In this document: piece by piece, positions 12,413 to 63,931 of the stretch | Layout: each line of letters opens with the position of its first letter | Position numbering within the stretch: the stretch's first letter is position 1 | NCBI GenBank assembly: GCA_016871375.1 | Contig: VFYY01000001.1 | Coordinates: 6,616 to 70,615, forward strand | Reading direction: 5' to 3' | DNA length: 64,000 bases | From: Acidimicrobiia bacterium | GTDB lineage: Bacteria > Acidobacteriota > Vicinamibacteria > Vicinamibacterales > UBA2999 | The notes under the pieces: generated by a model | The model's input: only the letters and a program-made list of their open reading frames with translations | Databases searched by the model: none | Told to the model about the DNA's origin: nothing | Program-made: the position numbers and the translations under genes

Positions 12413-12421
12413 GGGTTCGTG

Positions 12422-12459
12422 CAGAGAAAAAGAGAGGGACGCCGCGCCGGCGTCCCTCT
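12422..12459 (-). terminator. Intrinsic terminator between the two pilin genes
   Basis: Minus strand reads AGAGGGACGCC-ggcgc-GGCGTCCCTCT followed by CTTTTTCTCT. That is an 11-bp GC-rich perfect stem, 5-nt loop and T-tract, starting about 20 nt after the stop of the upstream pilin. Confidence 0.8.
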
Positions 12460-12481
12460 TGGATCACGGACGCGATCGCCC

Positions 12482-13006
12482 TTACTGCAGGGCCGTGCCG
12501 CCGGTGATGTCGGTGAACACCGCGTCGGTCGCCTGGCGAATCTGGCCGCTGTGATCCGTCAGGAAATAGCGCGTGCCGCTGCTGCCCGGGTCCACCGGCT
12601 CGGCGGTCGCGTTGAAGCCCGACGTGGTCGTGCTCGAGTCGTTGCAGGCACCCGAGGCCAGAACGGTATCGCCCGCCGCGTTCACGTCGAACTCATAGCC
12701 GCTCTTCGGGGTCGTGTTGGCCACGTCCGCTGCCGCCAGGTCGGCCGGGATGAACGCGACGTTGGAACCCGGCGCGTTCGTTCCGAGCGTGTCGAGCGAG
12801 CCCGCATAGCCGCCGCCGCCGCAGCTCGAGGCGAACGTCGCCTGGCCGCTGCTGATGGTCCGAATCGACCCGATCGCGGAGGCCTCGTTGCCGGACATGC
12901 GCGCCCGGAGCAGGCCGGGGACCGCGATGGCCGCGATGATGCCGATGATCGCCACGACGATCAGCAGCTCGATCAGCGTGAAACCCTTGTTGTCGCGCAT
13001 TCTCAT
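12482..13006 (-). CDS. pilA: Type IVa major pilin candidate (promoter-proximal copy)
   Basis: MRMRDNKG-FTLIELLIVVAIIGIIAAIAVPGLLRAR. Two Cys and a Ser/Thr-rich patch (ACNDSSTTTSGFNAT). It has its own sigma-54 promoter, a GAGGAG RBS and a terminator. An alternative ATG lies at 13000. Confidence 0.92.
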   Translation of the reverse strand: MRMRDNKGFTLIELLIVVAIIGIIAAIAVPGLLRARMSGNEASAIGSIRTISSGQATFASSCGGGGYAGSLDTLGTNAPGSNVAFIPADLAAADVANTTPKSGYEFDVNAAGDTVLASGACNDSSTTTSGFNATAEPVDPGSSGTRYFLTDHSGQIRQATDAVFTDITGGTALQ

Positions 13007-13057
13007 ACAGGCAGGCTCCTCAGTTGTGTGCTGAAACGCTTAGCACCCCCCTTGAGG

Positions 13058-13072
13058 GCAACCCGTATGCCA
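13058..13072 (-). promoter_or_regulatory. Sigma-54 (-24/-12) promoter of the pilin gene
   Basis: Minus strand reads TGGCAT-ACGGG-TTGCC against the consensus TGGCAC-N5-TTGCW, with correct spacing. The -12 element is about 52 nt upstream of the ATG. A sigma-54 activator (PilR-like) is encoded immediately upstream. Confidence 0.75.
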
Positions 13073-13163
13073 CGCCGCCCTTGTGTGGCATGGAGACTAA
13101 GCCGCTCTTTCACAGAGAGTTAGGCCACCGACGCGAACCGTGATCGTGCGAAAGCGTGCACAA

Positions 13164-13237: not shown

Positions 13238-14679
<1,442 letters not shown>

Positions 14680-14683
<4 letters not shown>

Positions 14684-16347
14684 GAGGCGAGGCTCCCTGC
14701 GGCCACGCCTTCACGGACCGGGAACAGGACGCGCACGGTCGTGCCCACGCCGACGGTGGACGACACCTGGATGGAGCCGCCGTAGTCGGTGACGATGCGG
14801 TGCACGATCGCGAGCCCGAGGCCGCTGCCCTTCTCGAAGGAGGTGCGGAACGGCTGGAAGATGCTGTCCAGCTCCTCGGCGGGAATGCCGCGGCCTTCGT
14901 CCTGGACGGCGAGCACCAGCTCCCCCTCGCCGACGGCGGTGTTGTCCGTCACCGACAGCAGCAGGCGTCCGCCGCCAGGCATCGCGCGCAGGCCGTTGGT
15001 GGCGAGGTTCCAGACGATCTGGCGCACCTGGTTCTCGTCGGCCTCGTACCACGCCGGCTCCGCCGGAATGGCGACGTCCACGACGTGATCGCCGTGCACC
15101 TCCGCGCTGTTGCGCAGCAGGAGCGCGGTGTCCTGCACCACCTTGGCGATGTCGAGGCGCGCGACCGCGAACTTCTGCGGGCGGGCGTAGGCGAGGAACG
15201 AGCGGATCGTGTCGTTCAGGCGCTCCGACTCCTTGAGCACGATGTCCATGAGCTGCGCCTGGTCCTCGCTGAGCGGCAGCTCCTGGCGCAGGACCTGGAT
15301 CGAGCCCGACATGGACGCCAGCGGGTTGCGGATCTCGTGCGCGATGCCGGCCGCCATCTCGCCGACCGCGGCCAGACGCTGCTGCAGCCGCGCGTGCCGC
15401 TCGAGGCGCTTGACGTCGGTGACGTCCTGGAAGGTGAAGAGATATCCGTGGCGGCCGCTCGGGAAGGCGACCGTCGACGCCGTCATGCCGATGTCGATGC
15501 GGCGGCCGTCCGTGGTGCGGAACTCGACGTCGGAGCGGAGGCTGCGGCGCTCGGCGAGGTCGCTGAGGCGCGCGCGCATGGCGAGCGGCAGCTGCAGCAC
15601 TTCGGTGGCATCGTGGCCGACGGCCTGCTCCGCGGTCAGTCCGGTGATCTCCGCCGCGGACCGGTTGAACGTCAGCACGCGCAGGTCGCGGTCCGCCGTG
15701 ACCAGGCCGCTCAGCAGGCTCTCGATGACGTGCTCGTTGAAGGCGCGCAGGTCCTCGAGCTCGTGCGACGCGTCCTCGAGGCGCGCGTCCGCCGTCCGCC
15801 AGCCTTCGGCGAGCGCGCCGGAAAGGAGCGCCACGGCGACGAAGCCGAACAGGTTGATGGCGACGGTGTACTGCGCAAACTGCTGCGACGGCAGGTCGAG
15901 GCGGAGATCGCCGAGCCACGACCCGGGCCCGTACGGGAACACGTTGAGGTACTGCGCGGAGACGAGCGTCAGGTAGAGGATGGCGCTGAGCGCCGCGACC
16001 TGCAGGGCGCCGCGGCGGAACCGCACCATGCTCGCCGCCATGATGGGCAGCAGGTAGAGCGACGAGAAGTAGCTGGTGATGCCGCCCGTGAGCTGGATGA
16101 ACCCCGACACCAGGATCGCGTCGGCGCCGAGCTGGGCATCGGCGAGCCACAGGTGGCGGTCGACCAGGCGCAGGGTCCCCAGGTACGCCAGGCTCAGCGC
16201 GTAGGTCACCCCGATCAGGAAGAAGAACGGGTCGACCGGGAACGTGCCGGGCCTGTTCAGCTGAATCAGGATCGCCCAGCCGAGCAGCAGCGTGCTGACG
16301 ACGACCCTGACCGCGATCAGCGTGGAGAGCCGGGAGCGTAAATTCAT
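14680..16347 (-). CDS. pilS: Sensor histidine kinase, PilS-like
   Basis: Polytopic N-terminus (MNLRSRLSTLIAVRVVVSTLLLGWAILIQL...), PAS-like region, H-box GIAHEIRNPLASMSG, HATPase motifs (QDEGRGIP, GSGLGLAIV). Start moved to ATG 16347; upstream codons in the ORF track lie inside the heptamer repeat. Confidence 0.87.
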
Positions 16348-16409
16348 TTGCGATTTGCGATTTGTGATTTGTGATTTGCGTTTCCGATCGCAAATCACAA
16401 ATCACAAAT
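16346..16409. repeat. Heptanucleotide tandem repeat (ATTTGYG)5 + inverted (CRCAAAT)3; perfect 21-bp hairpin
   Basis: 16346-16380 is ATTTGCG ATTTGCG ATTTGTG ATTTGTG ATTTGCG, then an 8-nt loop, then 16389-16409 CGCAAAT CACAAAT CACAAAT. 16360-16380 is the exact reverse complement of 16389-16409. It fills the pilC-pilS spacer. Confidence 0.95.
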
Positions 16410-16419
16410 CCCCAATGTC

Positions 16420-17643
16420 CTAGCCTCCTCCCGTGAGCTCGCTGATGAGGCTGAAGATCGGCATGTACATCGCGATGACGATGCCGCCGACGACGCCGCC
16501 GAGGACCGCAATCATCATCGGCTCGAGCAGCGTCAGCAGGCCGGCGACCGCGACGTCGACCTCCTCTTCGTAGAAGTCGGCGATCTTCGACAGCATCGTG
16601 TCGAGCGCGCCCGTCGCCTCGCCGACGCCGATCATCTGCACCACCATCGGCGGGAAGACGGCGGTCTCACGCAGCGGCGCCGCAATCGTCTCGCCGCGCT
16701 CGATGCTGCGGCGCGTCGTGTAGATCGCGTCCTCGACGATGGCGTTGCCCGCCGTCTTGGCGGTGATGTCGAGCGCCTCGAGGATGGAGACGCCCGAGGC
16801 GAGGAGCGTCGACAGCGTGCGGCAGAACCGCGCCACCGCGATCTTCCGCATCAGCGGCCCGAGCACCGGCAGCTTGAGGACGATCCTGTCGACGACGTGG
16901 CGTCCCTTGTCGGTCGCGTAGTACTGCCGGAACGCGAAGCCGGCGGCAAAGAACCCCGCGATCAGGAACGGCCCAAAGCGCACCAGGTTGTTGCTGAGCG
17001 CGATGACGATGCGCGTCGGCAGCGGCAGCTCGGCGCCGAGGCCCGCAAACAGGTTGGCGAAGGTCGGAATGACCTTCCAGAGAATGACGCCGACGACCAC
17101 GGTGGCGATGACGACGACCGCGACCGGGTAGACCATCGCCGACTTCACCTGGCTCTGCAGCTTGACCGCCTTCTCGATGTAGGTGGCGAGCCGCTTGAGA
17201 ATGGTGTCGAGAATACCGCCCGCCTCACCCGCCGCGATCATGTTGGTGAAGAGCGGGTCGAACGTCTTCGGGTGCTTGCTCATCGCGTCGGCGAGCGACG
17301 CGCCGCCCTCGACGTCCCCGCGCGTGGCGAGAATGACCTCGGAGAAGTTCTTGTCCTCTTCCTGCGTGCCCAGGATCTCGAGGCACTGCACCAGGGGCAG
17401 GCCGGCGTCGATCATGACCGAGAACTGGCGGGTGAAGACCGCCAGGTTCTTCGGGTCGACCTTCTTGCCGCCCTTCTTCTTCACCGTCTTGGCGGCGGCC
17501 TTCTCCTTGACCGGGTTGATCTGCGTGACCAGGATCTGGTCGCGGCGCAGCGCGGCCACCGCCGCTTCCATGGAGTCGGCCTGGCGTTCGCCGGTCACGT
17601 TCTGCCCGGCGCGCGTCCGTCCGCTGTAGGCAAATGTGGTCAT
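16420..17643 (-). CDS. pilC: Type IV pilus platform protein PilC (GspF family)
   Basis: 407 aa with two GspF-type repeats (e.g. FTRQFSVMIDAGLPLVQCLEIL and FCRTLSTLLASGVSILEALDI). Context pilB-pilT-pilC. Confidence 0.95.
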   Translation of the reverse strand: MTTFAYSGRTRAGQNVTGERQADSMEAAVAALRRDQILVTQINPVKEKAAAKTVKKKGGKKVDPKNLAVFTRQFSVMIDAGLPLVQCLEILGTQEEDKNFSEVILATRGDVEGGASLADAMSKHPKTFDPLFTNMIAAGEAGGILDTILKRLATYIEKAVKLQSQVKSAMVYPVAVVVIATVVVGVILWKVIPTFANLFAGLGAELPLPTRIVIALSNNLVRFGPFLIAGFFAAGFAFRQYYATDKGRHVVDRIVLKLPVLGPLMRKIAVARFCRTLSTLLASGVSILEALDITAKTAGNAIVEDAIYTTRRSIERGETIAAPLRETAVFPPMVVQMIGVGEATGALDTMLSKIADFYEEEVDVAVAGLLTLLEPMMIAVLGGVVGGIVIAMYMPIFSLISELTGGG

Positions 17644-17653
17644 AGAGCTATCT

Positions 17654-17695
17654 CAAATCACAAATCGCAAATCGCAAATCACAAATCGCAAATGG
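17654..17695. repeat. Heptanucleotide tandem repeat (CAAATCR)6
   Basis: CAAATCA CAAATCG CAAATCG CAAATCA CAAATCG CAAATGG. Six direct units fill the pilT-pilC spacer. Same family as 16346-16409, with no inverted arm here. Confidence 0.95.
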
Positions 17696-17697
17696 GC

Positions 17698-18837
17698 CTA
17701 CCGTCCCACCACCGGGCGCTGGCCGGGCGCGGGCGGGCCGCCCGGGCGGCCGAGGCCCGCGCCGGCCACGACGCCGACGCCGCGGTTGATCATCTCCTGC
17801 AGCTCGTCGCGGTTCGACGACTTCTCCATGGCGTGCTCGAGCGTGATGAGCTTCTTCTGGTAGAGCGTGGCCAGCGACTGGTTCTGCGTCTGCATCCCGA
17901 ACTTCTCCTGGCCGGTCTGCATCGCCGAGTAGATCTGGTGGACCTTGTCCTCGCGGATCAGGTTCCGGATGGCGGGCGTCGGAATCATGATCTCGAGCGA
18001 GCAGACGCGGCCGCCGCCGACTTTCGGGACGAGCGCCTGGCAGACGATCCCCTCGAGCACGAGCGAGAGCTGCGTGCGGATCTGGCTCTGCTGGTGCGAG
18101 GGGAAGATGTCGATGATGCGGTTGATCGTCTGCGCCGCGGAGTTGGTGTGCAGGGTGCCGAACGTCAGGTGGCCCGTTTCCGCGATGCGCAGCGCCGCCT
18201 CGACGGTCTCGAGGTCGCGCATCTCGCCGATGAGCACGATGTCCGGGTCCTCGCGGAGGGCGGCACGCAGGGCGTCGGCGAAGCTCTTGGTGTCGGCGTG
18301 CACCTCGCGCTGGTTGACGAGGCAGCTCTGATGCTGGTGCACGAACTCGATCGGGTCCTCGATGGTGAGGATGTGCTCGTGCCGCTCCTTGTTGATCTTG
18401 TCGATCATCGCCGCCAGCGTCGTCGACTTGCCGCTGCCGGTCGGCCCGGTGACGAGGATCAGGCCGCGCGGCTTCTCGGCGAGCTGCGCGAGCACCGGCG
18501 GCAGCCCGAGCTCGTTGAAGCCGCGGATCTTCTCCGGGATGAGGCGGTAGACCGCGCCCACCGCGCCGCGCTGGTTGAACATGTTGCAGCGGAAGCGCGC
18601 GAGCCCCTTGATGCCGAACGAGAAGTCGAGCTCCAGCGCCTCCTCGAAGCGCTTCTTCTGCGCGTCGGTCAGCACGCTGTAGGTGAGCTGCTTGGTCTCC
18701 GAGGCGGTGAGGTCGGTGCCCTCGACGCGCTGGAGGTGGCCGTGGACGCGAATCTGCGGCGGCGTGTTGGTGGCGATGTGCAGGTCCGAGCCGCCGAGCT
18801 CGACGACCTTGTGCAGCAACTCAGGCAAATTGGCCAT
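17698..18837 (-). CDS. pilT: Type IV pilus retraction ATPase PilT
   Basis: MANLPELLHKVVELGGSDLHI..., Walker A GPTGSGKST, and the AIRNLIRE motif characteristic of PilT. Confidence 0.95.
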   Translation of the reverse strand: MANLPELLHKVVELGGSDLHIATNTPPQIRVHGHLQRVEGTDLTASETKQLTYSVLTDAQKKRFEEALELDFSFGIKGLARFRCNMFNQRGAVGAVYRLIPEKIRGFNELGLPPVLAQLAEKPRGLILVTGPTGSGKSTTLAAMIDKINKERHEHILTIEDPIEFVHQHQSCLVNQREVHADTKSFADALRAALREDPDIVLIGEMRDLETVEAALRIAETGHLTFGTLHTNSAAQTINRIIDIFPSHQQSQIRTQLSLVLEGIVCQALVPKVGGGRVCSLEIMIPTPAIRNLIREDKVHQIYSAMQTGQEKFGMQTQNQSLATLYQKKLITLEHAMEKSSNRDELQEMINRGVGVVAGAGLGRPGGPPAPGQRPVVGR

Positions 18838-20606
18838 TACTTAACCGTCTCCCTGACGACCTCTTCGATCGTCGTCACGCCGTCCTTGACCTTCCGCAAC
18901 CCGCTGCCGCGCAGCGTGATCATCCCTTCTTCCACCGCCTTGCGGCGCAGCTCCAGCGCGGAGGCGCCGACGAGGATCAGCTCGCGCAGCTCCTCGGTCA
19001 CTTCCATCACTTCATAGAGGCCGACGCGCCCCTTGTAGCCGGTGCCGTTGCACTTCTCGCAGCCCTTGCCGTGGTTCGGCACCACGGTCTTCGCGTCCTC
19101 GGGCGTGAACCCGGCCTGGATCAGCGCGGCCGGCGGCGTGGGCATCGGCTCCACGCAGTTCTTGCAGATGCGGCGCACGAGGCGCTGCGCGCACACGAGG
19201 TTCAGCGAGCTCGCCACCAGGAACGGCTCGATGCCCATGTTCATCAACCGGTTCACCGTGCTCGGCGCGTCGTTGGTATGGAGCGTGGAGAGCACCAAGT
19301 GGCCGGTGAGCGCCGCCTTCACCGCGATCTCCGCGGTCTCGAAGTCGCGGATCTCGCCGACGAGGATGATGTTCGGGTCCTGGCGCAGGAAGCTGCGCAG
19401 CGCGGCCGCGAAGTTGAGCCCGATGTTCTCGCGCACCTGCACCTGGTTGACGCCGACCAGGTTGAACTCGACCGGATCCTCGGCCGTCATGATGTTGGTG
19501 TCGATGGTGTTGATGCGCGAGATCGACGAGTAGAGCGTGTTCGTCTTGCCCGACCCGGTCGGGCCGGTCACCAGCACCATGCCCCACGGCTTCTGGATCT
19601 GCGTCTCGAACTTCGTCAGCGACTCCGGCTCGAACCCGAGCTTCGTCATGTCGAGCATCAGCTTGTCCTTGTCGAGCAGACGCATGACGATCTTCTCGCC
19701 GAAGAGCGTCGGCAGACAGGAGACGCGGAAGTCGATGTCCTTCGGGGAGCCGTTGTCCTGGAAGCGGATCTTGATGCGGCCGTCCTGCGGCAGGCGCTTC
19801 TCGGCGATGTCGAGCTTCGCCATGATCTTCACGCGCGAGGTGATCGCGTCGCGGAACTTCAGCGGCGGCGTCATGATGTTGTAGAGCAGCCCGTCCACGC
19901 GGTAGCGGACGCGGTACTCCTTCTCGTACGGCTCGATGTGGATGTCGCTCGCGCCCTTCTGAATCGCCGACATCAGGATGACGTTCACCAGCTTGATGAC
20001 CGGCGCCTCCTCGCCCTGCTTGGCGAGCATGTCGGCGCTGATCTCCTCGAGCTCCTCGAGGACCTCGACGTCGCCGGCGTCGGCGGTCAGCAGCGAGACG
20101 TCCTCGAGCGCCCTGCTGGCGACCTCGAGCGCGCTCGGCCCCGTGGACGACCCGCCCGCGCCGTTGCCGGCGGCGGCCGCGGCCTTGCCGTAGTACTTCG
20201 CGATCGCGTCCATCACCGCGAGCTCGGACGCCACCACCGGCTCGACGTTGTAGCCCGTCATGAACTTGATGTCGTCCATGGCGAACACGTTCGTCGGGTC
20301 GGTCATCGCAATCGTCAGCGTGGCGCCGGCGCGCGAGAGCGGCACGATCTGGTACTTCTGCGCGGTCTCGGCGGGCACCAGCTTGGCGACGGCGGGGTCG
20401 ATCTCGAACTGGGCGAGGGCGATCGAGGGCACGCCGTACTGCTTGCTGAGGAGCGAGGTGATCTCCTCGTCCTTGACGTAGCCCAGCTTGATCAGATTCA
20501 GGCCGAGCTTCCCCCCGTTCGTGCGCTGATAGTTCAGCGCCTCCTGCAACTGCTCCGGGGTGATGCGCTTCTCCTTGAGAAGCAGCTCGCCTATTCGAAC
20601 GGCCAT
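18837..20606 (-). CDS. pilB: Type IV pilus extension ATPase PilB (GspE family)
   Basis: N-terminal GSPII_E_N-type domain, Walker A GPTGSGKTNT, tetracysteine motif (CKNC...CEKCNGTGYKGR). 589 aa. Confidence 0.95.
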   Translation of the reverse strand: MAVRIGELLLKEKRITPEQLQEALNYQRTNGGKLGLNLIKLGYVKDEEITSLLSKQYGVPSIALAQFEIDPAVAKLVPAETAQKYQIVPLSRAGATLTIAMTDPTNVFAMDDIKFMTGYNVEPVVASELAVMDAIAKYYGKAAAAAGNGAGGSSTGPSALEVASRALEDVSLLTADAGDVEVLEELEEISADMLAKQGEEAPVIKLVNVILMSAIQKGASDIHIEPYEKEYRVRYRVDGLLYNIMTPPLKFRDAITSRVKIMAKLDIAEKRLPQDGRIKIRFQDNGSPKDIDFRVSCLPTLFGEKIVMRLLDKDKLMLDMTKLGFEPESLTKFETQIQKPWGMVLVTGPTGSGKTNTLYSSISRINTIDTNIMTAEDPVEFNLVGVNQVQVRENIGLNFAAALRSFLRQDPNIILVGEIRDFETAEIAVKAALTGHLVLSTLHTNDAPSTVNRLMNMGIEPFLVASSLNLVCAQRLVRRICKNCVEPMPTPPAALIQAGFTPEDAKTVVPNHGKGCEKCNGTGYKGRVGLYEVMEVTEELRELILVGASALELRRKAVEEGMITLRGSGLRKVKDGVTTIEEVVRETVK

Positions 20607-20649
20607 CTACGGACTGAAACGTGTATTAGGAACCGGCTGACAATTTCTG

Positions 20650-21612
20650 TCAAAAGGAAACGCGCGCCGCCAGGCCCCAGCCCTCCTCGTCGGCCGCCCC
20701 CCCTTTGACCGCGTATCCGTCCACGAAGACACCCGACCGCACCGCCACGCTGGCCCCCCCGGTGGCGCTTCGCTCCCGCCGGCCCACCATATTGAAACGG
20801 CCACCGGCCCGGATTCCGAACCGCCGCGCCTGGAACCACCGCTCGATCCCGGCGGCCACCACCCGGCGGTCCCCGCCGCCGGCGTCATACGACCGCAGGT
20901 CGGCATCGACGGCGACGGTCAACGGCCCGCCGGTCGCCCGCTCCGCGTCGAAGGCCGCGCCGGCCCGCACCTGGCGAGGCAGGCGAAAATCCTCGAATTC
21001 GGGCTGACCCACGTTCCGGACGACGGCTCCAAGCCGCACCGGACCGGCCACCGCGAGCACTCCCACATCCGCGTCGAATCGGTTGTGCGTGGCCCCCTCA
21101 CCAACGGTGCCGCGCACGTATTTCAGCGTGGTTCCGGCATGAACTCCGGGCGTCAGCGTCTGGACCAGCGTGACACCCAGCTGGCTGGCGGACAGCGACC
21201 GGGCGGGGAGTCCAACCCGTCTATCTTCTCGGTCTGGTGTGCCCTGTCCTGTAGGGCTGAATGGCTGTATGTCTGTGAGCCGAAAGCGGTAATAGCCGAT
21301 TCCGAATGGCGGCGTCGCAAGCGTGAACGAGGTCGTCCGGTGGCGCCAGGCCGGCAGCGACTCCTCCGCCTCGGTCGCGGCCCTTGCCAGCGCCATGTCC
21401 ATGAACGGGCCCGCGGCAAGCCCACCCGGATTCCACCAGATGGCACTCGAATCAGACGCAACCGCGACGAAGGCTCCCCCCATCCCAAGCGCACGCGGAC
21501 CAGTCGATTCGATGATTTGGGCAGACGCCGGAACGCTGAGGCCGAGGCAAAGCAGTGTAATACTGACCAGCTGGTCGCGCCGCCCGGCGGTATAATTTTT
21601 TTGATTACTCAA
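20650..21612 (-). CDS. Putative outer-membrane beta-barrel protein
   Basis: The C-terminal residue is Phe (...GLAARVSF) and the body has alternating beta-strand-like patterns. It carries the motif ALGMGGAFVAVASDSSAIWWNPGGLA seen in FadL/PorV-like barrels. I propose a TTG start at 21612, giving a signal peptide (M)SNQKNYTAGRRDQLVSITLLCLGLSVPASA-Q. The long ORF-track extension is rejected; the start is uncertain. Confidence 0.6.
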   Translation of the reverse strand: MSNQKNYTAGRRDQLVSITLLCLGLSVPASAQIIESTGPRALGMGGAFVAVASDSSAIWWNPGGLAAGPFMDMALARAATEAEESLPAWRHRTTSFTLATPPFGIGYYRFRLTDIQPFSPTGQGTPDREDRRVGLPARSLSASQLGVTLVQTLTPGVHAGTTLKYVRGTVGEGATHNRFDADVGVLAVAGPVRLGAVVRNVGQPEFEDFRLPRQVRAGAAFDAERATGGPLTVAVDADLRSYDAGGGDRRVVAAGIERWFQARRFGIRAGGRFNMVGRRERSATGGASVAVRSGVFVDGYAVKGGAADEEGWGLAARVSF

Positions 21613-21675
21613 AACCGTAGAGAGGAACAGACGCAAAATCGTAATCGTATCAGGAGTTTGGGTGACATCGCCCGG

Positions 21676-22353
21676 ATGCTCGGCATCATCCATTCGCCCC
21701 GCATCACGCTCACGGCCGTGGCCGCCGACCCCCGCTGGGGGCCGGTGATGGCGCTGACCTTTGTCGTCAGCCTGGTCAGCAGCGCCGCGCTCCTGGCGAC
21801 CGACGTCGGGCAACTGGCGCTGGTGGACCAGTGGGAGCGCGCGGCGATCGCCTTCGGCCAGCCGGTGGACGATGCGCAATACGCGGCGATGCTGGACGCC
21901 AGCGAGAGGGGCAGCACGGTGTACGCGGCGGCGAGCTCGCTGCTGAGCGGACCAGTGCTGGCGGTGGGGCTCGCCGCACTCCTCTACGTGGTGTTCGCGC
22001 GAGGCGCAGCCGGCGTCACCTACCGGCAGGTGCTGGCGGTGGTCGTGTACGCGGGGGTGATCCTCGCGGCGCGGCAGGTGATCGCCGCGCCCGTGAATTA
22101 CGCGCGCGAGACGCTGGCGAGCCCGACCACGGCGACGGTGCTGTTCACGATGCTCGACGAAGCGTCGCCGCTCGCGCGGTTCTTCGGCGTGATCGACCTG
22201 TTCGTGCTCTGGTGGATTGGCGTGCTGGCGGTCGGCATGTCGGTGCTCACGCGCCGGCCGGCCCGCCCCCTCGCCATCACGTTCGTCGGCGCCTACATTA
22301 CGCTCGCACTCGTGCTCGCGATCGTCATGGCGGTGACGGGAGGAACCGCGTGA
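21676..22353 (+). CDS. Yip1-domain-like polytopic membrane protein
   Basis: 225 aa from ATG 21676 (MLGIIHSPRITLTAVAADPRWG...) with about 5 hydrophobic segments. The stop overlaps the GTG start of the adaptor gene. Family assignment is by general resemblance only. Confidence 0.6.
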   Translation: MLGIIHSPRITLTAVAADPRWGPVMALTFVVSLVSSAALLATDVGQLALVDQWERAAIAFGQPVDDAQYAAMLDASERGSTVYAAASSLLSGPVLAVGLAALLYVVFARGAAGVTYRQVLAVVVYAGVILAARQVIAAPVNYARETLASPTTATVLFTMLDEASPLARFFGVIDLFVLWWIGVLAVGMSVLTRRPARPLAITFVGAYITLALVLAIVMAVTGGTA

Positions 22354-41215: not shown

Positions 41216-43312
41216 ATGAAGGTCTATGATGCCGCCGCCATCCGCAACGTGGCCGTCGTCGGTCATGGCGGGTGCGGCAAGACGCAGCTGGTGGCCGCCC
41301 TGCTCTTCGCCTCGGGCGCCGTCAACCGGCTGGGCAGGGTCGATGACGGGTCCACCGTCACCGACTTCGACGAAGAAGAGATTGCCCGCAAGCACACCCT
41401 CTCCTCCAGCCTGGCCCACACCGAGTGGCAGAAATCCAAGATCAACCTCATCGACACCCCCGGCTTCGCGAACTTCCTGACCGACGCCCGCTCCGCGCTG
41501 CGCGTCGTGGAAGCCGCCGTGGTGGTCGTCGACGCCGTCGCCGGCGTCGAGGTGCAGACTGAAAAGCTTTGGAGCGAGGCCGCCGGCCTCGGTCTCCCCC
41601 GCGTCGTCGCCGTCAACCGCCTGGAGCGCGACCGCGCGAGCCTCGAGCGCACGCTTGCGTCGCTGCACCGCGACTGCGCCCGCGAGATCGTGCCCATTCA
41701 GCTGCCGCTCGGCGAGGAGCGCGGCTTCACGGGCGTGGTGGACCTGGTGCGCATGAAGGCGCTGACGTTTGCCGCCGATGGCAGCGGCAAGGTGACCGAA
41801 GGCGACGTGCCGGCGGCGCTGGCGGACAGCGCCGGCAAGGCACGCGAGCAGCTCATCGAGATGGTGGCCGAGGCGGACGAGTCCCTGATGGAGACGTTCT
41901 TCGCCGAAGGGACCCTGACGCAGGAGCAGCTCGTGTCGGGTCTTCGCGCGGCGACGGTCGCCGGCAAGCTCTACCCGCTCGTCTGCACGTCGGGGCTGCA
42001 CGTCATCGGCGCGCAGCCGCTGCTGGACGCGATCGCCAGCTACGTGCCGTCGCCCGCCGAGCGCGACTTTCCCGCGCTGGCGCCGGACGGCACCGACACC
42101 ACGGTGAAGGCGAGCGACACGGCGCCGTATTCCGCATTCGTCTGGAAGACGATTGCGGATCCGTTCGCCGGCCGCATCACCATGCTGCGCGTGGTGTCGG
42201 GGACGCTGAAGTCGGACACGACGGTCCACAACGCCACGCACGATTCGCCGGAGCGCCTGGGCCACCTGCTGGCGCTGCAGGGCAAGACGCAGACACACGT
42301 GGCGGAGCTCAAGGCGGGCGACCTCGGCGCCGTCGCGAAGCTGAAGGACACGAAGACCAACGACGCCCTCGCCGAAAAGACGACCAAGGTGAAGTTCGCC
42401 GAGATCACGTTCCCGGAGCCCGTGCTCTCGTACGCGATCGAGCCGAAGTCGCGCGGGGACGAGGACAAGATCAACCAGTCGATGCAGCGACTCCGCGAGG
42501 AGGACCCGACCATCGGCTACACCCGCGACCCGCAGACGCACGAGCTGCTGCTGGCCGGCCAGGGCCAGCTTCACATCGAGGTCACGGTGGCGAAGCTGAA
42601 GCGCCGGTTCGGCGTCGAGGTGAACCTGAAGCCGCCGCGGATCCCGTACCGGGAGACGATTACCGCCTCCACGGAAGCGCACGGCCGGCACAAGAAGCAG
42701 ACCGGCGGCCACGGGCAGTTCGGCGACTGCAAGATCAGGGTCGAGCCGCTGCCGCGCGGGAGCGACTTCCAGTTCGAGGACGACATCTTCGGCGGCGCGA
42801 TCCCGCGCCAGTTCGTCCCGGCCGTCGAGAAGGGCATCCAGGACGCGCGGATGCGCGGCTTCCTGGCCGGCTACCCGATGGTGGACTTCAAGGCGACCGT
42901 GTTCGACGGGTCGTACCATCAGGTGGACTCGAACGAGCTCTCGTTCAAGATGGCGGGCTCGCTGGCGTTCAAGGACGCGATGACGCGGGCGCGCCCCACG
43001 ATCCTCGAGCCGGTGATGAAGGTCGAGGTCTACTCGCCCAGCGACTTCGCCGGCGACCTGATGGGCGATCTGAACGGCCGGCGCGGCCGCATTGCGGGCA
43101 TGGACACGCGCGGGGCGATGACCGTGATCCGCGCGCAGGTGCCGATGGCGGAGATGCTGACCTACGAGCAGCACCTCACGTCGGCGACCGGCGGCCGCGG
43201 GTCGTACCACATGGAGTACTCGCACTACGAAGAAGTGCCGCAGCACCTGCAGGGCAAGATCATCGCCGCCGCACGGGCGGAGCGGGGGCAGGAAGCGGTC
43301 GAAGAAGTCTGA
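41216..43312 (+). CDS. Elongation factor G paralogue (EF-G2-like translational GTPase)
   Basis: Five-domain EF-G architecture, 698 aa, AGGAGG RBS 8 nt upstream. The G motifs are deviant: G1 is GHGGCGKT (canonical AHIDAGKT) and G3 is DTPGFANF (canonical DTPGHVDF). It is not in a str operon context. Confidence 0.88.
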   Translation: MKVYDAAAIRNVAVVGHGGCGKTQLVAALLFASGAVNRLGRVDDGSTVTDFDEEEIARKHTLSSSLAHTEWQKSKINLIDTPGFANFLTDARSALRVVEAAVVVVDAVAGVEVQTEKLWSEAAGLGLPRVVAVNRLERDRASLERTLASLHRDCAREIVPIQLPLGEERGFTGVVDLVRMKALTFAADGSGKVTEGDVPAALADSAGKAREQLIEMVAEADESLMETFFAEGTLTQEQLVSGLRAATVAGKLYPLVCTSGLHVIGAQPLLDAIASYVPSPAERDFPALAPDGTDTTVKASDTAPYSAFVWKTIADPFAGRITMLRVVSGTLKSDTTVHNATHDSPERLGHLLALQGKTQTHVAELKAGDLGAVAKLKDTKTNDALAEKTTKVKFAEITFPEPVLSYAIEPKSRGDEDKINQSMQRLREEDPTIGYTRDPQTHELLLAGQGQLHIEVTVAKLKRRFGVEVNLKPPRIPYRETITASTEAHGRHKKQTGGHGQFGDCKIRVEPLPRGSDFQFEDDIFGGAIPRQFVPAVEKGIQDARMRGFLAGYPMVDFKATVFDGSYHQVDSNELSFKMAGSLAFKDAMTRARPTILEPVMKVEVYSPSDFAGDLMGDLNGRRGRIAGMDTRGAMTVIRAQVPMAEMLTYEQHLTSATGGRGSYHMEYSHYEEVPQHLQGKIIAAARAERGQEAVEEV

Positions 43313-43347
43313 GGTTCCGGGTTCCGGGTTCCGGGTTCGACGTTCGG
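43313..43347. repeat. Heptanucleotide tandem repeat (GGTTCCG)3 + two degenerate units
   Basis: GGTTCCG GGTTCCG GGTTCCG GGTTCGA CGTTCGG, immediately after the EF-G paralogue stop codon. Confidence 0.9.
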
Positions 43348-43377: not shown

Positions 43378-43413
43378 CGTGTGCGCGACTACTGCCGTGT
43401 GCGCGACTACTGC
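43378..43413. repeat. Perfect 18-bp tandem duplication
   Basis: CGTGTGCGCGACTACTGC occurs twice back-to-back (43378-43395, 43396-43413). It lies between the terminator and the stop of the convergent gene, overlapping the latter by 7 nt. Confidence 0.9.
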
Positions 43414-49837: not shown

Positions 49838-50231
49838 ACTCTTTCTCTCCTGAATTCTACCGAGGTCAGCGGCCGTGCTCCGGAGCGGACGCTCAGCCGT
49901 GCGGACGGCTGAAATCAGGCCTGATTCCGCGTGGCACGGACCATGAGTGATGCCCATCCGGAGGTGACCATGGCGGGAAGGCCAAGGGCAACGGCCCGGC
50001 GTTCTGCCGCAGCGGGCAGGGCCATCCGGTTCACGGCTGGGCGTGTGCCGCGACAAGGGCTGGACGCGCAACGACAACTTCTGGGATCGCGCGAGAGATC
50101 GGGACGATCGCGCACGGCGGCGTGACGACCGCGATCGCGATCGCGATCGGGACCGCCGCGACGACGGCGGCTGGTGGCCCTTCTAAACTGTCTCAACGAG
50201 GCGGGCTCGGCTTAGGCATTTCCACCGAGCC

Positions 50232-51443
50232 TTAGAGCTCGACGACCAGACGGCGAACCAAGGCCGTCACCTCCGATTGCCACGTAGATAGTACCCAAGG
50301 TACTCCAGCAGTCACGGCACCGGAGATCAGCCCCGCGATAACATTGCGTCCCGGAGTACCGACGGAATCGAGGTCCTTCAATTCATCGACGACGATACCG
50401 GATACCTGTCCGCTCGTAGAGGCCGCCAGTACCCCGCGATACCTGATCAGTTCTCGATCGTGTGACACCCAACGGCCTTCTACAGCGAAGTGAATCACCT
50501 GTAGGAGCGGTGTAGTTAGCACCGTGCGCGTGATCTCGCGCTCGAGGTCGGTCAACACCTGCACCATCCGTGCTTCGCGGAATTGACTCTCCGGCAGCCT
50601 TGCAACGCCCGCCAGCGAACGTAGCCACTGCTTACGCCACTCGAGGAGTTGCTTCGTGCGATGCCTGGATAAGGACAGGCCCAAGAAGAACGGGCAAACA
50701 AACGCGAACAAGTAAATCAGAAACGGCGCCGAGACTATCACCCAGGTGTCGGCCGCACTAGGTAACGAGGCACCGGCCTGTTCAGACACAAGTCTCGGAA
50801 CAGCTAGATATGCCGCGATCGGGAATACCAGCATCAGGCCAAACGCCAACGACGAGTTGCGCACGTCATCGTCGCCATGGGTTGTCGCCACTGCGGGCCA
50901 CATTGCAACCATCATCATGACTGCGCCCAGAATCGACGGCATGATGAAGAGCGTCCATGCCAAGCGGACGGGCTTCGCAGCACTAGGTCCTTCGGTCCAA
51001 AACACCCATAGAGTCCCGATTACCGACATCGCGAGGACACTTATCGCGATAGCTGAAATGGCAATTTGTGAAACTTGGAGTTGTCGTCTCGCGGCGTTTA
51101 GAAACCCGCGCTCGTAAGATGAAGCGAACATCAAAAACGCGAGCTTGTTTCGCTTCTCCTCGAGCCAAAAGCCGGAGACCGCTCCTATCACAACGTAGAC
51201 GACATGCCCCAAGAATGTCGCCCCAACAACGAGTGCGACGGCACTCCACGCGAACGAAGCGGACACAGCCCAGAACGCCATGACAAAAAGGGCCATGAAT
51301 CCCAGCTGATGTACCAACACGTCGTACCAAGGGGGCGCATGACCGAGCTGCCGAATTGAGCGCTTGCTTTGGAGGATCCCAAGCCAGAATGCCGCGGCCA
51401 TCGTGAGAAGAAATGCGGCGGTACGCAATAGCTGCTCGATCAT
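50232..51443 (-). CDS. Orphan polytopic membrane protein with approx. 130-aa C-terminal soluble domain
   Basis: 403-aa ORF with about 8 hydrophobic segments and no motif I recognise. Hand GC counts on two samples inside it give about 54-59% against about 70-75% in flanking genes. Confidence 0.6.
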   Translation of the reverse strand: MIEQLLRTAAFLLTMAAAFWLGILQSKRSIRQLGHAPPWYDVLVHQLGFMALFVMAFWAVSASFAWSAVALVVGATFLGHVVYVVIGAVSGFWLEEKRNKLAFLMFASSYERGFLNAARRQLQVSQIAISAIAISVLAMSVIGTLWVFWTEGPSAAKPVRLAWTLFIMPSILGAVMMMVAMWPAVATTHGDDDVRNSSLAFGLMLVFPIAAYLAVPRLVSEQAGASLPSAADTWVIVSAPFLIYLFAFVCPFFLGLSLSRHRTKQLLEWRKQWLRSLAGVARLPESQFREARMVQVLTDLEREITRTVLTTPLLQVIHFAVEGRWVSHDRELIRYRGVLAASTSGQVSGIVVDELKDLDSVGTPGRNVIAGLISGAVTAGVPWVLSTWQSEVTALVRRLVVEL

Positions 51444-51480
51444 TTGGCGCCGAGATTACCAGACCCACACAATCGCCATT

Positions 51481-51519
51481 GCAAAAACAAAAGGCCCGGC
51501 GACGTCGTCGGCCGGGCCT
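51481..51519 (-). terminator. Intrinsic terminator of the rpoA-rplQ operon
   Basis: Minus strand reads AGGCCCGGC-cgacgacgtc-GCCGGGCCT followed by TTTTGTTTTTG. Confidence 0.85.
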
Positions 51520-51534
51520 CTGTCTGGAGCTTGA

Positions 51535-51575
51535 GCGTTGGGCGTTGGGCCTTGGGCCTTGGGCCTTGGGCCTTG
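51535..51575. repeat. Heptanucleotide tandem repeat (GCSTTGG)6
   Basis: GCGTTGG GCGTTGG GCCTTGG GCCTTGG GCCTTGG GCCTTG, directly abutting the rplQ stop codon and upstream (in the transcription sense) of the terminator. Confidence 0.9.
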
Positions 51576-52169: not shown

Positions 52170-52205
52170 AGCGTTTCCTGCCGGCTGCCCACTGCCCGCT
52201 GCCGA

Positions 52206-53997: not shown

Positions 53998-54064
53998 ATT
54001 TGCGATTTCCGAATTGCGATTCGTGATGTCACATCACAGATCACAAATCACAAATCATCGATTC
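53998..54064. repeat. Degenerate heptanucleotide repeat array (ATTTGCG family) with imperfect dyad symmetry
   Basis: 7-nt phased units ATTTGCG ATTTCCG AATTGCG ATTCGTG ATGTCAC ATCACAG ATCACAA ATCACAA ATCATCG fill the rpsK-rpsD spacer. Confidence 0.85.
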
Positions 54065-55031: not shown

Positions 55032-55256
55032 CTACAGCTTTCTCACGATCCGGCCGCGGGTCAGATCCCGCGGCGTCAGCTCCACGACGACCCGGTCGCC
55101 GACGAGCACCCGGACGAAGTTCTTCTCGACCCCGCCGCCGATGTGCGCCGTCACCCGCGCGCCCTCGACGGTCACTGCATACAACCCGCTCGGCAGCTGC
55201 GCCGCGACGACGCCTTCCATCTGCGATGTGCGATTTGCGATTCGTGAATCATCCAT
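55032..55256 (-). CDS. infA: Translation initiation factor IF-1 (divergent)
   Basis: MEGVVAAQLPSGLYAVTVEGARVTAHIGGGVEKNFVRVLVGDRVVVELTPRDLTRGRIV aligns with the IF-1 S1-like fold. The ORF-track start at 55256 places the first 12 codons inside the heptamer repeat, so the true start is probably ATG 55220. Confidence 0.8.
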   Translation of the reverse strand: MDDSRIANRTSQMEGVVAAQLPSGLYAVTVEGARVTAHIGGGVEKNFVRVLVGDRVVVELTPRDLTRGRIVRKL

Positions 55257-55288
55257 ACGTCACAAATCACGAGTCACACATCACAAAT
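55223..55288. repeat. Heptanucleotide repeat, dyad form (4 units + 10-nt spacer + 4 inverted units)
   Basis: GCGATGT GCGATTT GCGATTC GTGAATC - atccatacgt - CACAAAT CACGAGT CACACAT CACAAAT. By my count the arms match at 17 of 22 positions, and every mismatch is a C/T transition. It fills the map-infA spacer. Confidence 0.9.
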
Positions 55289-58585: not shown

Positions 58586-58661
58586 ATGTGTATTTGTGAT
58601 TTGTGATTTGTGATTTGCGATTTGTGATTTGTCTTCACGAATCACGAATCGCACATCGTCA
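58586..58661. repeat. Heptanucleotide tandem repeat (ATTTGYG)6 followed by degenerate inverted units
   Basis: ATTTGTG x3, ATTTGCG, ATTTGTG, ATTTGTC (58592-58633), then TTCACGA ATCACGA ATCGCAC ATCGTCA. It fills the rpmD-rplO spacer. Confidence 0.92.
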
Positions 58662-58868
58662 ATCGCTCACCCTCACCAAATGACGCACCTTGTGAATCAT
58701 GCCGCGTGTTTCCGGCGTGTCCGGCAGCTCCACCGTGTGGCGGATGCGGCGCAGGCCCAGGCCTTCCACCGTCAGCGCCTGCGTCTTGTTGAACCCGATC
58801 GGGCTGCGCAGGAGGGTCACCTTGACCCGCTTCGCGGCCGCGCCCTTCGCTGCAGTCTTCTTGGCCAT
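58659..58868 (-). CDS. rpmD: 50S ribosomal protein L30
   Basis: ...VKVTLLRSPIGFNKTQALTVEGLGLRRIRHTVELPDTPETRGMIHKVRHLV is canonical L30. Confidence 0.93.
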   Translation of the reverse strand: MAKKTAAKGAAAKRVKVTLLRSPIGFNKTQALTVEGLGLRRIRHTVELPDTPETRGMIHKVRHLVRVSD

Positions 58869-62485: not shown

Positions 62486-62492
62486 GTCCTGC

Positions 62493-62696
62493 CTACTGCC
62501 GGCTGCCGGCTGCCTGCTTCTCTTTCAGAATCGTCTTGATCCGGGCCAGGTCCTTGCGGACCTCGCGCACCCTGGCCGGCGCCTCGAGCTGGCCCATCGA
62601 CTTCTGGATGCGCAGCCGGAAGAGCTGATCGTCGAGGTCCTTCACGCGCGCGCGCAGATCGTCGACCGTCAGCTCGCGGATCTCCGCCACCTTCAT
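62493..62696 (-). CDS. rpmC: 50S ribosomal protein L29
   Basis: Start set at ATG 62696, overlapping the rplP stop (ATGA): [38 protein letters not shown]... Confidence 0.93.
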
Positions 62697-63118: not shown

Positions 63119-63154
63119 GATGCGATTCCTCGTTCCACGTTCCGCGTTCGCTCG

Positions 63155-63854: not shown

Positions 63855-63931
63855 ATTTGCGATTTGTGATTTGTGATTTGCGATTGGAGCTGTGATTCGA
63901 AATCACAAATCGCAAATCGCAAATCGCAAAT
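63855..63931. repeat. Heptanucleotide repeat, dyad form: (ATTTGYG)4 + spacer + (CRCAAAT)4
   Basis: ATTTGCG ATTTGTG ATTTGTG ATTTGCG (63855-63882), a 21-nt spacer, then CACAAAT CGCAAAT CGCAAAT CGCAAAT (63904-63931). It fills the spacer between the presumed rplV and rpsC. Confidence 0.93.

Follow-up and report, generated by a model that had tools for sequence, protein, structure and literature searches.

The region studied here, hereafter the window, is a 64,000-nt stretch of contig VFYY01000001.1 (positions 6,616 to 70,615; assembly GCA_016871375.1) with a GC content of 0.63–0.72, from a host of ∼68% GC described as a soil/lake bacterium. Its minus strand carries a pilB-pilT-pilC-pilS-pilR gene cluster, and our subject is the tandem seven-nucleotide units (heptads), among them ATTTGYG, that occupy spacers within this cluster and at other sites in the window. 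The genes of the cluster, assigned from Pfam matches, and the two arrays between them are as follows.

13238–20606, minus strand: pilB-pilT-pilC-pilS-pilR cluster
13238–14683, minus strand: PilR (Response_reg, Sigma54_activat and HTH_8)
14680–16347, minus strand: PilS-like kinase (6TM_PilS, PAS, HisKA and HATPase), with its ATG at 16347–16345
16346–16409: ATTTGYG heptad hairpin in the pilC-pilS spacer (sequence, fold, three identical independent assemblies)
16420–17643, minus strand: PilC (T2SSF)
17654–17695, minus strand: direct heptad array in the pilT-pilC spacer (sequence, three identical assemblies)
17698–18837, minus strand: PilT (T2SSE)
18837–20606, minus strand: PilB (T2SSE and MshEN)

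The pilC-pilS element begins, on the plus strand, with five direct units, ATTTGCG, ATTTGCG, ATTTGTG, ATTTGTG and ATTTGCG (16346–16380), followed by an 8-nt loop, tttccgat (16381–16388), and three inverted units, CGCAAAT, CACAAAT and CACAAAT (16389–16409). The inverted arm is the exact reverse complement of 16360–16380, giving a perfect 21-bp stem; both this architecture and its coordinates are as described in an initial annotation of the sequence. RNA folding gives the hairpin −36.1 kcal/mol (z = −7.7), and none of 200 shuffled sequences is as stable. Its outermost unit is overlapped by the pilS ATG. The AT-rich stem gives way to CGCAAAUCGCAAAUGAAUUU, no U-run comes after the hairpin on the mRNA strand, and genuine terminators at other sites of the window are of a different form. 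On these grounds an intrinsic terminator is rejected, as the initial annotation had also judged.

The pilT-pilC array comprises six CAAATCR units, read as AUUUGYG in the mRNA. Its position and unit count are as annotated, with an imperfect final unit, CAAATGG. The array lacks an inverted partner and is unstructured in the mRNA sense (z = 0.0). Both arrays lie within a few nucleotides of the adjoining stop and start codons, as had been claimed, the measured distances being 2–11 nt. Mechanically called minus-strand open reading frames (ORFs) with GTG starts at 16398 and 16405 cross the repeats of the pilS spacer, that from 16398 being 572 aa long, and another at 58666 (176 aa) crosses a heptad array ahead of rplO; automatic gene callers may thus lengthen the pilS and rplO N-termini into the repeats.

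The repeat is not peculiar to the pilC-pilS spacer, absence elsewhere having been the result that would have told against its significance. Five of the six ATTTGYG elements in the window, together with five arrays of other heptads, lie outside that spacer, and nine heptad arrays lie outside the pil operon. The two-unit ATTTGYG pattern matches 28 times in the window, compared with 0.04 matches expected from shuffles; ATTTGYG occurs in six unlinked spacers and an NSGGCAG family in two. The nine arrays outside the pil operon are listed below.

43313–43346, plus strand: four to five GGTTCCG units, right after the stop of the gene at 41216–43312 (sequence, lag analysis)
51530–51575, minus strand: six GGCCCAA units in the mRNA sense, on the 3′ side of rplQ (L17) (sequence, assemblies)
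52170–52205, minus strand: NGGGCAG-type array in the rpoA-rplQ spacer (sequence, assemblies)
53998–54055: degenerate ATTTGYG hairpin in the rpsK (S11)-rpsD (S4) spacer (fold z −2.2 in the mRNA sense)
55222–55288: degenerate ATTTGYG hairpin in the map-infA spacer (fold −38.1 kcal/mol, z −5.4)
58587–58665: ATTTGYG element in the rpmD (L30)-rplO (L15) spacer (fold z −3.5 in the mRNA sense, −5.3 antisense)
62489–62520, minus strand: GCCGGCA-type heptads at the end of rpmC (L29) (sequence, lag analysis)
63119–63154, minus strand: three to four CGNGGAA heptads in the rpsC (S3)-rplP (L16) spacer (sequence)
63855–63931: ATTTGYG hairpin of four plus four units in the rplV (L22)-rpsC (S3) spacer (fold −37.1 kcal/mol, z −6.7)

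The four ATTTGYG elements of the ribosomal-protein operon lie on the same strand, and each consists of an array, a loop and an inverted array. The rplV-rpsC hairpin stands directly 5′ of AGGAG and the S3 GTG start. In the rpmD-rplO element six good units remain and the inverted arm has decayed; the L15 ATG follows CA-rich units and has no Shine-Dalgarno sequence. Among the arrays of other heptads, the rpoA-rplQ spacer consists of TCGGCAG, CGGGCAG, TGGGCAG and CCGGCAG, then GAAACGCT, then ATG. The GCCGGCA-type array covers the last seven codons and the stop of rpmC and ends 7 nt before the rpsQ (S17) ATG. The GGCCCAA array is bounded by the stop of rplQ and by a canonical terminator, a hairpin with a T-run at about 51490–51528. 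A terminator hairpin with a T-run also follows the GGTTCCG array; beyond this terminator, between convergent genes, is a perfect 18-nt tandem duplication (CGTGTGCGCGACTACTGC twice, 43378–43413).

Almost all longer spacers in the pil and ribosomal-protein operons consist of heptads, and some spacers of the window have ordinary terminators or small GC-rich hairpins instead. All 11 heptad arrays of the window lie in spacers or 3′ untranslated regions (UTRs), one reaching into the L29 codons, and the sequences that flank them are not conserved. The initial description of heptads filling the pil-operon spacers therefore holds as far as it goes, but the phenomenon is specific neither to that operon nor to ATTTGYG and is a general filling of intergenic DNA with period 7.

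The preference for seven nucleotides is sharp. Lag analysis of the window finds 10 arrays of at least four units at lag 7, compared with none or one at each other lag from 4 to 12. Pairing is the second regularity: the paired heptad elements have near-perfect stems of 21–28 bp, and for five of the six ATTTGYG elements the fold is far more stable than those of shuffled sequences (z −2.2 to −7.7). The third is polarity. Of the 37 heptad hairpins identified among 377 arrays, 30 have the G+T-rich arm on the 5′ side (18 of 25 when those of ATTTGNG type are left out), and with strict units ATTTGYG precedes CRCAAAT six times while the opposite order is found zero times. Since the two strands of a palindrome read alike, the asymmetry belongs to the element itself and is independent of the direction of transcription.

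Comparison with relatives shows that it is the position and the period that persist. In 80 metagenomic loci with PilC proteins 67–85% identical, Tandem Repeats Finder (TRF) identified 35 arrays of at least three copies, 22 of them of period 7, and with at least four units 18 arrays are found at lag 7 against 0–3 at other lags. The 22 period-7 arrays are all found in one of three spacers, pilB-pilT, pilT-pilC or pilC-pilS, and none in coding sequence. The unit differs from genome to genome (for example GATTAGT, TGGTTGG, AAGTGCA, GTAGAAG, AGAACTG, CTTAGAA and GGGATTG), and several of the elements are again an array with an inverted array. Where PilC is at least 80% identical, arrays are present in 4 of 16 upstream and 5 of 17 downstream spacers; where it is 73% identical or less, the figures are 0 of 19 and 1 of 21. 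Many relatives have short spacers with no array.

The same turnover is seen between two Vicinamibacterales genomes that have identical S4 proteins (loci L212 and L213). The S11-S4 spacer contains a GCAAAAT-type heptad hairpin in both, in place of the ATTTGYG of the window, and GC-rich hairpins of the GGCCYNA type occupy the L5-S14 and infA-L36 spacers of the two genomes. Just one of the pair has a heptad hairpin of ∼100 nt in the S4-rpoA spacer, which there measures 220 nt, 86 nt more than the 134 nt of the other genome. Two substitutions in the S11-S4 hairpin are out of register, and compensatory change is rejected. In the S8-L6 spacer (L212 3142–3212, L213 3261–3299) one genome has about three copies, and the other a single copy, of a 16-nt unit (GCCAACAAGGACTAGC) that includes the Shine-Dalgarno region, a tandem expansion that is not of period 7. 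GC-rich palindromes of the type GGCGGGTCTTGAGACCCGCC recur in the S3-L16 and L30-L15 spacers of this pair and may represent a separate REP-like family. Further afield, a ribosomal-protein operon from Pyrinomonadaceae has at least six heptad hairpins, with different units, in 8 kb.

Within the source population, on the other hand, the arrays are stable. Seven spacers were compared in independent assemblies that share the same proteins (four JGI samples and one ENA sample), and each spacer is identical in every assembly that covers it, two to five per spacer. Rapid slippage in unit number is thus not supported, and phase-variable contingency simple sequence repeats are rejected on the same evidence. 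We conclude that every kind of non-coding DNA in this lineage has been filled repeatedly by head-to-tail 7-nt units of arbitrary sequence, often with the inverted copy of an array behind it; that position and period recur between genomes when the unit itself does not; and that arrays arise, change unit and vanish quickly between related genomes while remaining stable within a population.

The metagenome-assembled genome (MAG) from which the window derives is labelled Acidimicrobiia (Actinobacteria) in NCBI, and the PilC, S4 and SecY proteins of the window are on record from this MAG (the contig's protein records include MBM3817405.1, MBM3817430.1 and MBM3817437.1); an exact-sequence look-up of the S3 protein gave no record. 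At 90% identity the S4 protein otherwise clusters with Vicinamibacterales. PilS, a sigma-54-dependent PilR and a type IV pilus cluster of Gram-negative type are also encoded on the contig. We therefore treat it as derived from a Vicinamibacterales-like acidobacterium; it is probably misclassified or mis-binned under its present label. An N_methyl pilin-like gene (12482–13006) lies just downstream of pilR; upstream of it, at ∼13050–13075 on the minus strand, TGGCATacgggTTGC fits a sigma-54 −24/−12 promoter, as expected for a PilR-activated pilA, and a terminator-like hairpin with a T-run follows the gene (∼12420–12470). Two stretches of ∼1.5 kb, 20607–22097 and 50078–51575, contain no gene according to a caller based on GC content at third codon positions (GC3). 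The second is lower in GC (0.625) and contains a minus-strand ORF that begins near 51443 (MIEQLLRTAAFLL...), given as a 389-aa protein without Pfam matches in public gene calls from two related contigs.

The ATTTGYG unit itself is widespread. A scan for (ATTTGYG)3 with one genome per species returned at least 119 loci. Most of the matches listed are from Acidobacteriota, Bacteroidota, Verrucomicrobiota, Planctomycetota, Chloroflexota and Patescibacteria, with a few from Cyanobacteria; among these matches there are almost no Proteobacteria, no Firmicutes and no Actinobacteria. The listed loci range in GC content from 0.33 to 0.71 and contain 117 further period-7 arrays that are not ATTTGYG, often adjoining the ATTTGYG array, compared with 19 or fewer arrays at any other period. 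In viral contigs (ATTTGYG)3 gives 23 matches, and three permuted heptads of the same composition give 24, 30 and 29. The idea that ATTTGYG is a special, horizontally shared motif is therefore rejected; since the permuted heptads are equally common, the spread of the unit across phyla fits a general tendency to form heptad arrays of any sequence and is no evidence of a shared sequence-specific element.

STRR repeats have been described in bacteria for decades. The initial annotation took the cyanobacterial STRR family as the closest analogue, and this was apt, in that both are tandem intergenic heptanucleotides dispersed at several loci. Assignment of the present arrays to a known class, the bacterial intergenic tandem heptanucleotide repeats (STRR-like, or period-7 long simple sequence repeats, LSSRs), is well supported. 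The arrays consist of head-to-tail 7-nt units in three or more copies (TRF and lag analysis), are confined to non-coding DNA in the window and at the PilC loci, and are dispersed at many loci with period 7 over-represented; their unit number and sequence vary at the same site between related genomes; and, as with STRR and heptamer LSSRs generally, each genome has several unit families. They are not STRR in the strict sense, since the unit sequences are different and the host proteins cluster with Vicinamibacterales. They further differ from STRR in their Acidobacteriota-like host, in having AT-rich units within a GC-rich genome, and in the large share that are paired with an inverted array into long hairpins.

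The initial annotation was aware of no equivalent in such a high-GC genome. The view that none exists outside the cyanobacteria is wrong, because heptad arrays have already been described in Xanthomonas (PMC4692102), in Beggiatoaceae and Bacteroidetes (PMC4679880) and in Geobacter (PMC2700814), and a general excess of heptamers among LSSRs was reported in 2007 (Mrazek et al., as cited in PMC4679880 and PMC4692102). TAACTGA, in Beggiatoaceae, Cyanobacteria and Bacteroidetes, is located close ahead of start codons and within operons for ribosomal proteins; possible binders that have been discussed are S1, Csp and CsrA, and Cand. Maribeggiatoa (BOGUAY) has 169 direct sets and only one inverted (PMC4679880). 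Like TAACTGA, which is found upstream of S4 among other genes, the heptads described here lie a few nucleotides upstream of starts and in ribosomal-protein operons, and both occur across distant phyla; TAACTGA often replaces the Shine-Dalgarno sequence. In contrast to TAACTGA, hairpins are common here, and instead of one dominant unit there are many, only some with stop codons in all frames.

The GGGAATC repeats of Xanthomonas and GGGGAYT of Nostoc form intergenic arrays of 2–26 units at about 180 per genome, some in inverted pairs able to form stem-loops or cruciforms, and vary widely in length and sequence at the same sites between related species (PMC4692102). The present arrays are likewise intergenic, in part inverted pairs, and variable between relatives at the same sites; those repeats are G-rich and have been studied as G-quadruplex formers, whereas ATTTGYG cannot form such a structure. 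Geobacter metallireducens carries the heptamers GGGACCG and MTYCTGA (PMC2700814), and in Nostoc heptamer repeats alter reporter expression (bioRxiv 10.1101/2022.06.06.494920). Our literature search found no report tying tandem heptanucleotide repeats to Acidobacteriota. The present case is thus a further example of a described, poorly understood class and not a new kind of element, and what may be new are the regularities, namely the usual 5′ position of the G+T-rich arm in the hairpins and the recurrence of one unit family within a genome.

Several other identities were considered. Rfam gave no match at the gathering threshold, and up to an E-value of 1 only sub-threshold look-alikes of animal miRNA precursor hairpins were found, so that no known RNA family is indicated. 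Miniature inverted-repeat transposable elements are rejected, there being no conserved core, no target-site duplications and no conserved flanks at the six ATTTGYG elements. Nor are the units likely to be three-frame stop signals; by hand count, 8 of 21 sense-strand units contain a stop triplet, not clearly above expectation.

A functional parallel is offered by the REP/BIME elements of enterobacteria and pseudomonads, which are multi-copy extragenic palindromes, often located between genes of one operon. Where tested, they act as stabilisers of mRNA 3′ ends or as points of processing or attenuation. REPs have a fixed consensus of ∼35 nt with no internal 7-nt periodicity and are linked to RAYT transposases. 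The ATTTGYG elements resemble them in being extragenic palindromes in many copies (five palindromic elements in 64 kb) and differ in that they share only heptads in variable number, with unrelated loops and flanks and thus no fixed consensus.

We favour, with moderate confidence, the view that the arrays are STRR-like repeats which originate by slippage or copying and act as intercistronic mRNA stem-loops of the REP/BIME type. They would arise by local expansion through replication slippage with a strong preference for 7 nt, and strand-switch or copying events would generate the inverted arm and disperse the unit family. The most likely role would be exerted at the RNA level, between cistrons. 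Because the arrays lie inside polycistronic transcripts, the paired elements are expected to form RNA stems of 21–28 bp there. Stems of about two helical turns have the classic length of an RNase III substrate, and such stems block 3′–5′ exonucleases; on this basis an action like that of REP/BIME is proposed. The stem-loops could segment the mRNA and confer different stabilities on the flanking cistrons, for example pilC and pilS, and by partly occluding the downstream ribosome-binding region they could uncouple translation of adjoining cistrons. The unpaired pilT-pilC array may be merely an unstructured U/G-rich linker.

A number of observations count against this reading. Only 37 inverted pairs were found among 377 arrays, and many arrays are unpaired. 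The elements are not restricted to intra-operon spacers, since divergent and convergent gaps carry them too; classification of gaps with a crude GC3-based gene caller, in a non-random sample of high-GC loci, places them in 36 of 131 co-directional, 4 of 10 divergent and 2 of 14 convergent gaps. Comparison of sense and antisense stability gives no consistent bias, the mRNA sense folding better in two elements, the antisense in two and neither in one, and G-U pairs are not favoured among the stem mismatches when these are read as mRNA. There is thus no sign of selection on an RNA helix as opposed to a DNA palindrome, and stem selection specific to RNA is rejected. The same-population assemblies (five samples, two to five per spacer) show no copy-number variation. 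Finally, plain slippage leaves unexplained the exclusivity of period 7, the recurrence of one unit at six unlinked loci and the polarity of the hairpins.

A strong rival, which we hold to be possible but less likely, is that of a neutral or selfish filler. The arrays would then be a by-product of a lineage-specific replication or repair bias that enlarges 7-nt units into arrays and generates palindromes; they would be tolerated outside coding sequence, with only incidental consequences for mRNA on which selection does not act. Arbitrary units that differ between orthologous spacers, whole elements present or absent between close relatives, arrays in every type of intergenic gap, stems of no better quality on the sense strand, and the array that enters the C-terminal codons of L29 all speak for it, as do the many relatives with short array-free spacers, the fall in array frequency with phylogenetic distance and the equal abundance of permuted heptads in viral contigs. 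Independent local origin does not, however, predict one unit at six unlinked loci in 64 kb; the polarity of the arms is non-random; and the arrays are tolerated, and identical across samples, in highly expressed ribosomal-protein operons.

Protein-binding arrays and REP-like mobility are less likely. The heptad could be the footprint of one OB-fold protein (cold-shock-like, or with an S1 domain) on single-stranded RNA; arrays near start codons would recruit or exclude such proteins and thereby adjust the initiation of translation or antitermination, a role suggested for TAACTGA in Beggiatoaceae. The unit length equals the CspB heptamer footprint, and similar repeats occur upstream of starts and in ribosomal-protein operons elsewhere (PMC4679880). 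The pilT-pilC array, unstructured and U/G-rich as RNA, ends 9 nt upstream of the pilC ATG; a Shine-Dalgarno sequence is missing from both pilS and rplO, which follow unpaired CA-rich units; and the direct arrays of the pil spacers mostly have more G than C on the sense strand. Most ATTTGYG elements are, however, locked in long stems, and in most downstream genes an ordinary Shine-Dalgarno sequence still separates the array from the start codon. Arrays are also found in 3′ UTRs ahead of terminators, and the units at different loci and in different genomes are unrelated and include GC-rich ones, which argues against any one sequence-specific binder. We consider an RNA-binding array improbable.

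Dispersal as mobile palindromes, by a RAYT-type Y1 transposase or another dedicated copying activity that would give genome-specific unit families, seems if anything slightly more doubtful. In its favour, the elements are palindromes present in many copies outside genes, often within operons, their consensus is particular to the genome, and close genomes differ by the gain or loss of an entire element. Beyond the heptads, however, they have no conserved core, loop or flank and their unit numbers vary; no target-site duplication is visible at the ATTTGYG elements; REP families are not internally 7-periodic; and no transposase was seen near the elements, none having been specifically examined.

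The weakest candidate is an array of operator- or centromere-like sites on double-stranded DNA, bound by one ribbon-helix-helix (RHH) dimer per 7 bp. The precedent is omega, the RHH ParB protein of plasmid pSM19035, which binds contiguous 7-bp units 5′-WATCACW-3′ in direct or inverted orientation (PMC9499535). In register, (AATCACA)n and a tandem of the T-type units of the window, CACAAAT, are one periodic sequence. Both the non-random orientation of units in the hairpins and the recurrence of one unit family within the genome would suit such a protein. Judged as operators of four or more contiguous WATCACW units, the arrays give a mixed picture: CACAAAT fits the site, about half of the units are CGCAAAT, which alters the ATCAC core, and the arms are split by loops that leave them 8–23 nt apart. 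In contrast to the plasmid sites, which overlap promoters and depend on a cognate RHH protein, the arrays are chromosomal and lie inside transcription units and 3′ UTRs, not over par or copy-control promoters. Mixed CGCAAAT and CACAAAT units coexist with unrelated heptads in other spacers, ATTTGYG is no commoner than its permuted controls in viral contigs, and the precedent comes from plasmids of Firmicutes. This explanation is very improbable.

Returning to the favoured view of slipped and copied repeats acting between cistrons, the features it leaves unaccounted for raise a further idea, to which we attach little weight at present. A process or protein of the Acidobacteriota, Bacteroidota, Verrucomicrobiota, Planctomycetota, Chloroflexota and Cyanobacteria could be writing or reading nucleic acid in steps of 7 nt, as a molecular ruler; this might be an OB-fold or RHH protein bound to each unit, or a copying activity producing first the units and afterwards their inverted copy. 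If such a ruler existed, it could account for the near-exclusivity of period 7 with arbitrary sequence, for hairpin polarity and for the recurrence of a unit at unlinked spacers.

At a practical level, gene callers lengthen ORFs through these arrays, as with the GTG-start ORF across the pilS spacer. For the biology of the repeats, this lineage offers a dense and tractable example of heptad arrays, in which the orthologous spacers of relatives are natural replacement experiments. The polarity of the hairpins, the genome-specific unit families and the specificity for period 7 could yield hypotheses on slippage, on RNA processing and on a protein that reads nucleic acid seven nucleotides at a time.

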